A stretch of DNA of 13,711 nucleotides from a virus. Position 1 is the stretch's first letter, and each line of letters begins with the position of its first letter. A model generated the notes under the pieces. That model saw only the letters and a program-made list of their open reading frames with translations, was not told the origin of the DNA and ran no database searches. The position numbers and the translations under genes were made by a program. Shown here piece by piece: positions 510 to 3,307 of the stretch. Where the stretch lies: the IMG/VR virus record IMGVR_UViG_3300005563_001145; one strand, written 5' to 3'.

Positions 510-1877
510 ATGAGCAAAGCCATTCTGGTTGCCGGATTGGGGTTCGGCGACGAGGGTAAGGGAACCATCACGCAATACCTCGCCAGCGAGATCAAAGCCG
601 ATATGGTCGTTCGCTACAATGGCGGCGCCCAGGCTGCTCATAACGTCTACGCTCAGAACGGACGACACCACACGTTCTCTCAGTTCGGCAGTGCCACCTT
701 CGAAGGGGTTCCTACCTTCATCTCTCGTCACGTCATCGTAGACCCAGCCGCCTTCATGAAGGAGGAATGGGATCTCTACGAGAAGGGGATGAAAGGCGCC
801 TACAAGAAGGTGCTGTTCGACCGGAATGCGCTCGTCGTCACTCCGTTCCACAGTGCTGCGAACCGTCTTCGCGAGATTCTTCGCGGCGACGGGAAACACG
901 GTAGCTGCGGGATGGGGATCGGTGAGACCAAGCAGGACTCCCTCTCCTCACACAACGACAGCGTCACCATGGGTGACCTTTCAGATAAGGCAACACTCCT
1001 CCGAAAGTTCAAGTCCATCCAAGAGCGCAAGTACGAGGAGTTCAAGAGTCAGATCTTGGACGTTTCTCTTCCAGACGTTGCCCATCGAGCACTTCGCTGG
1101 TTCACATTCCCGACCGAGCGAGTCGAGCATATGGCAGGGCGCCTGCACGATCTGAAGGGTGTGTTCACCACCGTCGACTCGGACGACCTGCCCAGCCTTC
1201 TTCATGGCAAGAACCTAGTCTTCGAAGGGGCGCAGGGCGCGCTGCTCGATCAGGACTATGGCTTCCAACCCTACACCGCCTGGACGGATGCGACCTTCAC
1301 CGGCGCACGCCAGATTCTCGATGCTGCTGGCTATGACGGCGACATCTGGAAGGTTGGAGTGATGCGCTCGTACATGACGCGGCATGGGGCTGGCCCGTTT
1401 CCCACCCACGATCAGATTTTCCAAGTCGAGGAAGGCGGAATCAAAGAGCTCGTGCTCGACAGGCACAACGGCACTGGCTTGTGGCAGGGCTCTTTCCGCG
1501 TCGGGGCACCTGACGTCTTGATGACGAGATATGCTCTGGATGTGGTCGGAGGCGTCGATGAGATCGCCATGACGCACATCGATCAGCGGCATCATTTCGA
1601 CTGGATCGGTGTCGGCTATGCGGTTCACGACGAAGAAGACGAACCGTTCTTCCAGTTCGGTAGCCCATCCCATCGAGCCCTCGACATCCATATCCAGAAG
1701 AACCCTACCTACGCTCATCAGCAGCGGCTGGCCGAGGCCCTGACTCGGGTCGCGCCGTGCTATGAGCGAGCCCCGAAGGACACCGATGGGTTCCTCCACA
1801 TCATGAAGCAGCATCTCCAGACGCCGATCGGCATCATCTCGACGGGCTGCGAACCGAGCAAGAAGTTCAGACCCTAG
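510..1877 (+). CDS. purA: Adenylosuccinate synthetase (PurA/ADSS) family protein, divergent
   Basis: The N-terminal P-loop GLGFGDEGKGT aligns with PurA QWGDEGKGK. Other PurA-like blocks are VVRYNGG...AAH (PurA VVRYQGGHNAGH), FEGAQGALLD (PurA FEGAQGTLLD), TRHGAGPFPT (TRVGAGPFPTE) and IISTGCEP (IISTGPDR). Length (455 aa) is that of a bacterial PurA. There is an SD-like gagggga before the ATG. Divergent at the Arg cluster (GRRRR -> GLWQGSFR) and TKLD -> THID. Confidence 0.8.
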   Translation: MSKAILVAGLGFGDEGKGTITQYLASEIKADMVVRYNGGAQAAHNVYAQNGRHHTFSQFGSATFEGVPTFISRHVIVDPAAFMKEEWDLYEKGMKGAYKKVLFDRNALVVTPFHSAANRLREILRGDGKHGSCGMGIGETKQDSLSSHNDSVTMGDLSDKATLLRKFKSIQERKYEEFKSQILDVSLPDVAHRALRWFTFPTERVEHMAGRLHDLKGVFTTVDSDDLPSLLHGKNLVFEGAQGALLDQDYGFQPYTAWTDATFTGARQILDAAGYDGDIWKVGVMRSYMTRHGAGPFPTHDQIFQVEEGGIKELVLDRHNGTGLWQGSFRVGAPDVLMTRYALDVVGGVDEIAMTHIDQRHHFDWIGVGYAVHDEEDEPFFQFGSPSHRALDIHIQKNPTYAHQQRLAEALTRVAPCYERAPKDTDGFLHIMKQHLQTPIGIISTGCEPSKKFRP

Positions 1878-3307
1878 AAGCCCCACAAGAAGACTAACTC
1901 ATGATCCAGAGACGCGTGCTTCACCAACGCGAGCGCCTCTGGATCGTTTTTATCTAGGTGCCACGCGTCGAAGGCGGGAGCTCTCAGAGCTCCAGACGGG
2001 AACCGCTCCTGCGCCTTCACGCGCGCCACTGTTCCCATGTAGACCTCTGGGCTCGAGTGCATGTGAGAGCGCTGAGCATCACTGAGCCCTGTTCCGACGC
2101 GGCCAACGATCGGCCCATCAGGCTCGTAGGAGTAGAAGAAGCCTCCCACCCCACGGTCCTTGTACTTGCCCTCGCCAGGGAAGAAGCCGCGAATGTAGAC
2201 ATCGTGGTCCGTCGAGAACTTTGCCTTGTACGGTGGTGTTCCTTGGTGAAGATGCCAGGCGACGATGCCCTCCTTCGTCTCCGGCATCTTCCCTTCCTTC
2301 ATGTCTTCCACCATTTTTTTCTTAGCCGTCTCGGTGAAGGCCATGCGAGGCAGGTGGAAGTAGTCCGGCAATTTCGCCTCTACCTCTCGAAGAACTTTCA
2401 GCTTCTCCGAGTAAGGAGCGCTCTCCATCTTGCGGCCTTTGTACTGGACGACGTCGTAGAGGACGGAGTTGAGTTGTCCGTGTTCTTCTTGCTTCTGACG
2501 ACTCTTCCAGACATCGGAGTTGAGAAGGCCGGCGAGTTGGGCTGCCGGCGTAGCGATTCCACTTCTTGGTGAAATCGCGTACAAGCCTCCTCGAAGGATC
2601 GTTCCTCCGAGTCCTTCCGGCGTAGGTACTCCCTCCAGGATTCCGGGGACCTTGTGCGTGTGTTCAATCAGTCCTCCGTTGCTTCTCTTCGCGGCGCGGT
2701 ACGAAAGTACCCGGATCTTCTCACCCGCCTTGGGAAAGTAGAAGAGGTTGTGAGCGTCGTCGATCTTGGCTGAGAAGACGTAGTCGTCGGTGTGGATCTT
2801 CGGGTCAGAGAGCTTGGTTTCCTTGTACTTGGGCTTGTCGGTTGGGAGCTCTGGATGCTGCTCCCGCCGCAGCGTGCGATTCATCAGAATCCACTGCTTG
2901 TCTCCGACCCGATGGAGGGAGTACTCTTCCGGCCCGCTGCCTCGGTAGACGTTGAAGCTGACGTGTCCGGGCCGAGCATTGGTGATTTCTGTCTTAGCTC
3001 GATCGAACATCTTCACGTCGCCCTTGCCGTAGCCATCCTCGATCTTCCCGACGAAGTCCATGTACTTCATCGTGTGCGTCGGCTGCTGGATGGCCCAGGT
3101 CTTCTCGCCCGGCTTCGGCCACTGAGCGTGCATCGCCCACGAATGGGCGTGTCCGGTAGCTGGATCTCCGAGTCGAAGGTCGAAGTGGCGGCCGCGTCTC
3201 TCAGCGTGATGGTCGTGAACAGTCAATTCCCACGTCTTTCGCTCCTCGACGTGCGGAAGATCGTGTGAAACGTGCTTCGCCGGGATCCCAGGAGCGAACT
3301 CAGACAT
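1874..3307 (-). CDS. LigD-like 3'-phosphoesterase (PE) domain fused to an ATP-dependent DNA ligase (nucleotidyltransferase + OB) domain
   Basis: The N-terminus has LigD-PE hallmarks: VHDHHAERRGRHFDLRLGD (H-x-H...HYDFRLE), SWAMH...PKPG, YMDFVGKIEDGYGKGDVKMFDRAKTEI (FEG.IP.G.YG.G.V..WD.G). Ligase motifs follow. Motif I is non-canonical: SAKIDDAH (K181). Motif Ia is VLSYRAAKRSNGG, III is VLYDVVQY, IV is EGIVAW, and V is PYKAKF...DVYIRGF. The OB-domain signature is GEGKYKDRGVGGFFYSY...IVGRVGTGLSD (ligase GKG.R.G..G......VGTGFSD). Its stop overlaps the purA-like stop (convergent). Confidence 0.7.
   Translation of the reverse strand: MSEFAPGIPAKHVSHDLPHVEERKTWELTVHDHHAERRGRHFDLRLGDPATGHAHSWAMHAQWPKPGEKTWAIQQPTHTMKYMDFVGKIEDGYGKGDVKMFDRAKTEITNARPGHVSFNVYRGSGPEEYSLHRVGDKQWILMNRTLRREQHPELPTDKPKYKETKLSDPKIHTDDYVFSAKIDDAHNLFYFPKAGEKIRVLSYRAAKRSNGGLIEHTHKVPGILEGVPTPEGLGGTILRGGLYAISPRSGIATPAAQLAGLLNSDVWKSRQKQEEHGQLNSVLYDVVQYKGRKMESAPYSEKLKVLREVEAKLPDYFHLPRMAFTETAKKKMVEDMKEGKMPETKEGIVAWHLHQGTPPYKAKFSTDHDVYIRGFFPGEGKYKDRGVGGFFYSYEPDGPIVGRVGTGLSDAQRSHMHSSPEVYMGTVARVKAQERFPSGALRAPAFDAWHLDKNDPEALALVKHASLDHELVFLWGF

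Follow-up and report, generated by a model that had tools for sequence, protein, structure and literature searches.

Organization of the PE-ligase gene

The viral DNA analyzed here, a stretch of 13,711 nt (IMG/VR record IMGVR_UViG_3300005563_001145, henceforth the window), carries a single gene on its minus strand, whose product joins a 3'-phosphoesterase (PE) domain of the LigD type to a module with the fold of ATP-dependent DNA ligases, and which we term the PE-ligase (Table 1); the remaining genes all lie on the plus strand. The initial annotation of the window had already described a two-domain protein of this kind on a phage contig, with a textbook PE domain, and Pfam, PDB and fold matches agree with that description; the sequence strings that it quoted are all present in the 477-aa open reading frame (ORF).

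The N-terminal region of the protein matches Pfam PF13298 over residues 31-108 (E = 3e-11; 43.8 bits against a gathering score of 31.1), and its sequence matches in the PDB are the archaeal and Pseudomonas PE structures 3P4H, 3P43 and 3N9B, with a profile E-value of 5e-20 to 3P4H. Residue-level alignment to this last structure, the PE of Candidatus Korarchaeum (CkoPE), pairs six residues of the window protein, all of them invariant in the family alignment, with the catalytic residues of the archaeal enzyme. The corresponding HHDRHY hexad is found in 123 of 150 family representatives, and the others show mostly gaps, the PE region being absent or only partly covered in them. In the PE structure two His and the Asp bind Mn2+, the Arg and a His bind the scissile phosphate, and alanine changes of the active-site residues abolish or strongly reduce activity (PMC3082917). 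The PE domain is preceded by the peptide EFAPGIP, which opens the PE module throughout the family and takes up an internal position in fusion proteins (L008, L012 and L014); it is probably an N-peptide of the PE, but it could alternatively be a processing or docking site.

The C-terminal ligase module has diverged so far that Pfam does not extend to motif I. Pfam PF01068, the adenylation domain, aligns to residues 236-350 through profile positions 74-184 only and fails its cut-off (18.5 bits against 26.2), and PF14743, the DNA_ligase_OB_2 domain, falls just short at residues 377-447 (E = 7.5e-6; 26.3 bits against 28), whereas PHROG 114, labelled 'ATP-dependent DNA ligase', covers residues 231-460 with an E-value of 1.7e-17. 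An AlphaFold2 model of the whole protein, built from 76 homologues, has a predicted local distance difference test score (pLDDT) of 92.4 and a predicted template modelling score (pTM) of 0.83; the PE region is beta-rich in it according to DSSP. Each of the top 50 fold matches of this model in the PDB is an ATP-dependent DNA ligase, with E-values from about 1e-12 to 1e-10; they include the ligases of Thermococcus, T4, human LIG1, LIG3 and LIG4, the ligase domain of Mycobacterium tuberculosis LigD and the ligase of Rhizobium phage P10VF. RNA ligases are absent from these top matches, and Pfam RNA_ligase does not match the PE-ligase of the window. The BFVD library of viral folds returned generic DNA ligases only, at 12-21% identity.

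Table 1. Features of the PE-ligase gene and neighbouring genes of the window
Feature	Position	Strand	Basis
PE-ligase fusion ORF (477 aa plus stop, ATG to stop)	1874..3307	minus	ORF list
N-terminal peptide EFAPGIP (aa 3-9)	3281..3301	minus	Column conservation, e.g. G7 in 114/120
LigD-type PE domain, about aa 24-145, eight-strand beta barrel	2873..3238	minus	PF13298, PDB matches, DSSP
PE metal/phosphate site, first half: H33, H41, D43, R45	3173..3211	minus	Equivalent to CkoPE His9, His15, Asp17, Arg19
PE metal/phosphate site, second half: H78, Y82	3062..3076	minus	Equivalent to CkoPE His51, Tyr55
Nucleotidyltransferase (adenylylation) domain, about aa 160-352	2252..2830	minus	Fold matches, profile alignment of motifs I to V
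Motif I, S179-A-K181-I-D183-D184-A-H186	2750..2773	minus	Homologue conservation and profile alignment
Motif Ia, V-L-S202-Y-R204	2696..2710	minus	S202 120/120, R204 119/120; aligned to archaeal 'SRR'
Motif III, T-I-L-R239-G-G241-L-Y-A	2576..2602	minus	R239 120/120; aligned to EGE, DTE
Motif IIIa, V-L-Y284-D285-V-V	2447..2464	minus	Y284 at the adenine-stacking aromatic position; D285 120/120
Motif IV, T-K-E346-G347-I-V349-A-W351	2255..2278	minus	E and G invariant; aligned to EGLMAK
OB-fold domain, DNA_ligase_OB_2 type, about aa 353-460	1928..2251	minus	PF14743; OB-region matches to 9FZX and 1FVI
Motif V, P-Y-K361-A-K363-F	2216..2233	minus	K361 and K363 each 119/120; aligned to LKIK
Motif VI, A-L-R442-A-P-A-F-D-A-W-H450-L-D452-K453-N	1946..1990	minus	Aligned to Chlorella virus ligase 'PRFPVFIGIR'
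Putative 2H phosphoesterase, 145 aa	3344..3781	plus, divergent from the ligase	Two HxT motifs: HMTI (aa 34), HITL (aa 84)
SpoU-family RNA methylase	6681-7220	plus	
Phosphoesterase phrog_547	7213-7815	plus	
ThyX	7817-8773	plus	
RanBP-type zinc-ribbon protein	8794-9879	plus	
rIIA	9888-11969	plus	
rIIB	11982-13121	plus	

Assignment of the nucleotidyltransferase motifs

The window protein reads KIDDAH where ligases normally carry the KxDGxR of motif I. The register of this and the other motifs was fixed through those relatives that read KIDGAH in the same columns, which make up 29 of the 120 closest homologues and are 46-65% identical to the window protein, by aligning a profile of their ligase domains to ligases of solved structure. 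In this alignment aKiDGah of the family is paired with KYDGAR in the ligase of Thermococcus sibiricus and with KYDGQR in human LIG1 (motif I), SyR with SRR (motif Ia), RgE with EGE or DTE (motif III), fDvv with FDIL (motif IIIa), eGvveW with EGLMAK (motif IV) and tKaK with LKIK (motif V), and in the OB region 'RaPaF..fH' is paired with 'RFPVFIGIR' of the Chlorella virus (ChV) ligase (motif VI). Given that the KIDGAH relatives align to solved ligases in this way, K181 is predicted to be the nucleophile, that is, the adenylylation lysine. Both K181 and D183 are invariant in the 120 homologues, and no other KxDG, canonical KxDGxR included, occurs elsewhere in the 477-aa protein.

The reading of motif I in the initial annotation, with Asp in place of a nearly invariant Gly and His in place of Arg, is thus borne out, as are the retention of the SxR of motif Ia and the choice and numbering of K181 as the lysine to mutate; only the span needs amending, since the positions 2750-2770 given for SAKIDDAH cover AKIDDAH, and the complete motif (residues 179-186) extends to 2773. 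The same alignment adds departures that had gone unnoticed, namely that the His-for-Arg replacement is family-wide and that motifs III, IV and VI are non-canonical as well. Besides D184 in place of the usual Gly and H186 in place of the usual Arg, the window protein has S179 at the position of the acid that often reads adenine N6. The [DE]xE of motif III is RGG (residues 239-241), G241 replacing the Glu that serves the ribose O2' and a metal water, W351 takes the place of the Lys through which motif IV touches adenine N1, and H450 stands where canonical ligases carry an Arg in motif VI.

In the structures of canonical ligases, the ribose hydroxyls of AMP are held by the Arg of motif I and O2' by the Glu of motif III, while the motif IV Lys reads adenine N1 and an acid two residues before the lysine nucleophile often reads N6 (PMC7470946, PMC6698739, PMC4220977). 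The window protein, like its family, has kept all the residues that touch phosphate and metal, namely K181, D183, S202 and R204, D285, E346 and G347, K361 and K363, and R442, D452 and K453; these positions are invariant or almost so among the 120 homologues.

Distribution and consensus of the family

A word-indexed search of 5.8 billion proteins identified 444 relatives of the PE-ligase, and when only the ligase half was used as the query, an exhaustive scan by HMMER yielded 598 clusters at 50% identity (E <= 1e-30). In IMG/VR the family is present at 42 loci, on contigs of up to 210 kb. Among the 50,697 phage records of GenBank, by contrast, neither tblastn with the protein nor megablast with the whole window produced a match, and 185,579 species genomes returned three contigs from metagenome-assembled genomes (MAGs) and one weak match in Mycolicibacterium; the MAG contigs, one of which is a single contig of 197 kb, are probably binned phage. 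The family is therefore essentially virus-only and metagenomic, and the earlier view that phage-encoded proteins of this kind are uncommon holds for isolates but not for metagenomes. The family, which may have been mentioned previously (Burroughs & Aravind 2016), can be described as uncharacterized, abundant and confined to uncultivated viruses.

Its consensus reads K-x-D-G-[AGS]-H in motif I, with His for Arg, R-[GA]-E in motif III, with Arg for Asp or Glu, and E-G-x-x-x-[WYH] in motif IV, from which the adenine-N1 lysine is missing, and it has His for the canonical Arg in motif VI. Read against the known roles of the canonical residues, these changes indicate that the nucleotide pocket has been rebuilt in the whole family. 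The PE-ligases constitute a distinct viral family, within the fold class of the ATP-dependent DNA ligases, that has deviant motifs I and III. The His at position 186 is a trait of this family and not a peculiarity of the window protein. The Asp at position 184, on the other hand, marks a derived subclade to which the window protein belongs and which, after its residues at positions 184, 241 and 284, we refer to as the D/G/Y active-site subtype.

Covariation of the motif I Asp with motifs III and IIIa

The motif I glycine is among the most constant residues of ligases and capping enzymes, and its replacement in this subclade is strictly coupled to a second change. Among the 120 closest homologues, the 91 that carry Asp184 all have Gly at position 241 and the 29 that carry Gly184 all have Glu there, with no mixed states, and neither Asp184-Glu241 (D/E) nor Gly184-Gly241 (G/G) intermediates occur in about 310 sequence rows. 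When the association with position 184 was scanned over all columns by normalised mutual information, position 241 reached 1.0. It was followed by position 284, the stacking aromatic of motif IIIa (0.92), which is Tyr in every Asp member and otherwise mostly Phe, Ile or Leu, and by position 189 (0.73), which is Phe in the Asp members and varied in the others; the remaining columns all fell below 0.6. The pattern extends to the 150 representatives of the family at 50% identity. Six of these carry Asp184, or nine if one counts fragments in which Gly241 or Tyr284 is seen but the motif I columns are missing. Where both columns can be read, in 141 representatives, Asp184 never occurs with Glu241, nor Gly184 with Gly241.

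The G/E state is basal, and G/E/Y, the state of seven representatives, is a possible permissive intermediate. The switch took place at least twice. Parsimony on a neighbor-joining tree requires at least five changes of state, although the tree is rough and the count of independent switches uncertain. Recombination was considered as the source of G/E sequences nested among the D/G/Y relatives and discarded for P0015 (G/E/F), in which the PE, nucleotidyltransferase and OB segments are each nearest to D/G/Y relatives. Across the D/G/Y clade the codons at D184 (GAC or GAT), H186, R239, G241 and Y284 differ synonymously, which implies purifying selection on those amino acids; the KIDDAH variant is neither a chance occurrence nor a sequencing error. 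Taken as a whole, the covariation argues that the Gly-to-Asp replacement is compensated by the Glu-to-Gly change in motif III and the Phe-to-Tyr change in motif IIIa.

A structural rationale for this coupling is offered by the pre-step-3 complex of the Prochlorococcus ligase (Pmar-Lig), in which the catalytic Mn2+ is held via waters, one of them bound by the motif I Asp, through its side chain, together with the motif I Gly, through its carbonyl, and another by the motif III Glu and the 2'-OH of the AMP (PMC6698739). According to this water network, the two positions that swap, 184 and 241, would flank a single metal-water-ribose cluster, and since the Gly and the Glu serve the same Mn2+, an Asp at the Gly position can plausibly take over. 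The secondary structure of the AlphaFold2 model places I182, D183 and D184 in a tight turn that links two strands, a setting in which Gly, Asp or Asn is normally found. We infer that the carboxylate that organizes the ribose 2'-OH and the metal water may have been relocated from motif III to motif I, with the hydroxyl of Tyr284 supporting the new carboxylate network. No usable results of mutating the motif I Gly in the ChV ligase emerged from a search of the literature. The G/E/F and D/G/Y states amount to a natural double or triple mutant cycle that reveals energetically coupled positions of the active site.

Proposed activity and alternative explanations

From its sequence, the gene product is probably a catalytically competent, phage-specific 'heal-and-seal' enzyme in which KIDDAH is a conserved and compensated variant of motif I. 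In such an enzyme, the Mn-dependent PE at the N-terminus would turn blocked 3' ends, those with a 3'-phosphate or with a short run of 3' ribonucleotides, into a ligatable 3'-OH. The nucleotidyltransferase and OB domains would then act in three steps, in the first of which K181 would attack a nucleoside triphosphate (NTP), most likely ATP, to give a lysyl-nucleoside monophosphate (lysyl-NMP) and pyrophosphate (PPi); the NMP would next be moved to the 5'-phosphate, and attack by the 3'-OH would finally close the phosphodiester and seal the nick. The chemistry is most likely ordinary ligase chemistry. The OB domain, motif VI and the fold matches favour a nick sealer of the DNA-ligase type, for which nicked duplex DNA would be the expected substrate, possibly with acceptance of a 3' ribonucleotide.

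The fusion partners of the relatives are congruent with this proposal. An N-terminal 2H phosphoesterase is fused in P0052, P0071 and L008, the last of which matches Pfam 2H-SAK, and an inorganic pyrophosphatase of the polyvalent type is found at the C-terminus of P0113, L008 and L011. P-loop kinase-like domains occupy the C-terminus of L009, L021 and L027, that of L021 being at a guess a 'polynucleotide kinase' on the strength of weak AAA_33 and AAA_18 matches; a PDB sequence search with this domain was uninformative. Relatives of up to 1,682 aa further contain SNF2 helicase, NUDIX, GNAT, KTSC, HD, SET, Hint and peptidase domains. The pyrophosphatase fusions fit a reaction that releases PPi from an NTP, and the 2H, kinase and PE modules, all of them end-healing activities, fit a heal-and-seal enzyme. 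PE-ligase modules were also observed within giant proteins of 1,200-1,700 aa (L008, 9623-13333; L011, 9989-13978; P0136, P0143 and P0258), in company with 2H, inorganic pyrophosphatase, SNF2, NUDIX, GNAT, HD, SET, Hint and peptidase domains.

Several points weigh against this reading. Apart from the uncertain number of switches noted above, the nearness of D184, G241 and Y284 is an extrapolation from published structures of other ligases, and both Pfam ligase models stay below their gathering thresholds in the window protein, even if several relatives of the G/E type do clear that of PF01068. The readers of adenine N6, adenine N1 and ribose O3' are all absent, which makes ATP an assumption. 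Finally, gene neighbourhoods are not conserved, and context consequently fixes neither the pathway nor the substrate. A conserved repair operon was sought and dropped after a Pfam census of 109 flanking genes from 36 loci plus the window, in which the only recurrences were SNF2 (three loci), PG_binding_1 (three), DUF192 (two) and D12 methylase (two).

The fusions just described also bear on a second explanation, which we regard as unlikely: that the protein repairs RNA, acting on tRNA or mRNA broken by host ribonucleases together with its 2H neighbour and with a kinase encoded elsewhere. The divergent 2H-like gene of the window, the 2H and kinase-like fusions of the relatives and the SpoU RNA methylase gene nearby all speak for it. 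These 2H and kinase associations are, however, occasional and not conserved, and SNF2 helicases, both as fusions and as neighbours, suggest DNA instead. The sealing module itself shares its OB domain and motif VI with DNA ligases and capping enzymes, two features that classic RNA ligases are not known to have, and its top fold matches are all DNA ligases. On the healing side, the PE enzymes have been characterized on DNA primer-templates (PMC3082917).

The rebuilt pocket raises the possibility of a changed cofactor, with K181 charged by GTP, dATP or another NTP rather than ATP, an arrangement that would perhaps let the enzyme go on working once ATP or NAD+ has been depleted by host defences, but that we hold to be rather improbable. 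It would account for the family-wide loss of the motif IV Lys (W351), of the acid two residues before the lysine (S179) and of the motif I Arg (H186), and for the additional loss of the ribose-O2' Glu in the clade of the window; the pyrophosphatase fusions, for their part, suggest an NTP and not NAD+. Nevertheless, the aromatic and aliphatic residues that sandwich the base (Y284 and V349) are kept, no feature that would positively select another base was recognized, and specificity cannot be assigned from sequence alone; some canonical ATP ligases, that of ChV among them, also lack the -2 acid. The 'altered nucleotide handling' proposed by the initial annotation is possible but rather unlikely. 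Its most far-reaching form, in which the rebuilt pocket and the triple swap would stem from a genuine shift in cofactor or in nucleotide geometry, in a phage 'first-aid' ligase, often within giant injected multi-domain proteins, that goes on working while the host cuts phage nucleic acid or depletes NAD+ or ATP, appears to us distinctly improbable. A cofactor other than ATP would be a notable addition to ligase enzymology.

The suggestion that the adenylyltransferase is partly degenerate fares worse. A ligase half that had decayed into a nucleic-acid-binding scaffold for the PE would explain why motifs I, III, IV and VI are all off consensus and why the Pfam ligase models score below threshold, but we find it highly improbable: in hundreds of sequences neither the lysine nucleophile nor any metal- or phosphate-touching residue varies, the deviations are in turn maintained throughout a clade whose members have diverged to about 50% identity, and the Gly-to-Asp replacement is compensated, with synonymous codon variation at the positions involved. 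The pyrophosphatase fusions, moreover, make sense solely for an active nucleotidyltransferase.

Least probable of all, to the point of being nearly negligible, is a bona fide LigD, i.e. a phage-borne ligase of the bacterial pathway of non-homologous end joining (NHEJ) that rejoins double-strand breaks with Ku, in spite of the union of a PE with an ATP-type ligase and of NCBIfam LigD models being the best, though weak, matches (LigD_PE_dom, 44.4 against a cut-off of 144; NHEJ_ligase_lig, 29.3 against 227.75; NHEJ_ligase_prk, 17.7 against 373.2), because Pfam detects no POL/PrimPol domain, be it in the protein itself or among the other ten ORFs of the window, no Ku was found in these ORFs or in the flanks of the relatives, the family is nearly missing from the species genomes searched and the OB domain is of the viral or minimal OB_2 type, so that the label 'LigD-like' can be kept for the PE domain only.

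Relation to known repair enzymes

The heal-and-seal enzyme proposed here shares with the LigD proteins of P. aeruginosa, M. tuberculosis and Agrobacterium an Mn-type PE with the same six residues, a nucleotidyltransferase and OB module of the ATP-dependent-ligase type and the logic of placing 3'-end healing beside sealing; it departs from them in lacking POL, in its OB_2-type OB domain, in its non-canonical motifs I, III, IV and VI and in belonging to a viral instead of a cellular family. The stand-alone archaeal PE enzymes (CkoPE, 3P4H; MbaPE, 3P43), which give the best matches to the N-terminal domain, present the same minimal beta-barrel and an identical catalytic hexad, but they are single-domain proteins unlinked to a ligase, and the phage domain has the conserved N-peptide EFAPGIP in addition. 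As for the sealing module, the ChV ligase (1FVI), the T4 ligase Dnl (6DT1) and the ligase of Rhizobium phage P10VF (9FZX) display the same fold, the same order of motifs I to VI and an OB_2-type OB domain. Identity to such viral and minimal ligases is nonetheless only 12-21%, and their KxDGxR, DGE and EGxxxK correspond to KIDDAH, RGG and EGxxxW in the phage protein. T4 ligase and LIG1 differ further in having a helical DNA-binding domain where the phage protein has its N-terminal PE barrel.

The relatives that unite 3'-phosphoesterase, 2H, P-loop kinase-like and ligase modules in one polypeptide recall the RNA healing-and-sealing systems, such as T4 Pnkp with Rnl1 and the LIG-KIN-CPD arrangement of fungal Trl1. 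Unlike these, the phage sealing module is of the DNA-ligase type, 3' healing would be performed by a PE and not by a HAD or 2H enzyme, and the window protein lacks a kinase of its own. A resemblance to phage polyvalent proteins is also seen in many relatives, 700-1,682 aa in length, which carry SNF2, inorganic pyrophosphatase, 2H, NUDIX, GNAT, peptidase and Gly-zipper modules, whereas the window protein is a stand-alone protein of 477 aa with two modules. The 2017 survey of polyvalent proteins, which are of a virion-packaged type, mentions no PE or DNA-ligase module (Iyer et al., PMC5512222).

The family links a 3'-end-cleaning domain of the LigD type directly to a compact ligase, and in relatives this pair is extended by modules of the kinase, cyclic-phosphodiesterase, pyrophosphatase and helicase kinds. 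Provided that they are active, such enzymes would show how large phages repair 'dirty' breaks, possibly those inflicted by host defence nucleases, and a single polypeptide able to seal 3'-phosphate nicks could serve as a reagent.

Genomic context

The PE-ligase gene, whose source is an uncultivated large phage, lies in a neighbourhood of the nucleotide-metabolism type (Table 1). Downstream of it, at 510-1877 on the plus strand, is a phage-encoded homologue of adenylosuccinate synthetase that converges on the ligase gene, the stop codons of the two overlapping at 1874-1877. Its PHROG family is labelled PurZ-type, but NCBIfam scores it at 167 bits for PurA and 44 bits for PurZ, each under its cut-off. 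A PurZ-dependent 2-aminoadenine genome was contemplated as the cause of the odd ligase and dropped, both because NCBIfam favours PurA and because the ligase pocket binds the cofactor and not the bases of the genome.

On the other side, a divergent intergenic stretch of 36 nt (3308-3343) that contains the palindrome CTACGgccttCGTAG, and in which no sigma-70-like promoter was detected, separates the PE-ligase from the putative 2H phosphoesterase gene. The product of the latter has a weak match to Pfam tRNA_lig_CPD (E = 0.006) and belongs to PHROG 36523. In BLASTP against the fused 2H domain of P0071 both HxT motifs align, at a non-significant E-value of 0.2-0.4. The protein is an orphan, with no cluster other than its own retrieved from 5.8 billion proteins, and iterative hidden Markov model and motif searches found few 2H domains. 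Adjacency of a 2H gene to the PE-ligase is not conserved in the other loci, and a role of the 145-aa product as an accessory end-healing enzyme for the PE-ligase can be suggested only tentatively.

Beyond it, positions 3785-6580 of the plus strand encode a protein of 931 aa, without a PHROG match, in which a shoulder domain of the Major Vault Protein (PF11978, E = 1.4e-23), unusual for a phage genome, is accompanied by a weak vault repeat match. The top GenBank phage matches of rIIA, in Streptomyces, Arthrobacter and Roseobacter phages, are just 27-35% identical, which points to a virus without close cultured relatives. A protein identical to the PE-ligase of the window (P0001) is present in public metagenomes, and the IMG/VR contig L003 (IMGVR_UViG_3300005535_000017, 210,330 bp) matches it at 100%. 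In L003 only some 1.2 kb separate this gene from the contig end, while the window runs about 1.9 kb beyond the gene. Judging from these differing distances, the window either represents a slightly different assembly or spans a contig junction, and the latter would fit a circularly permuted genome.

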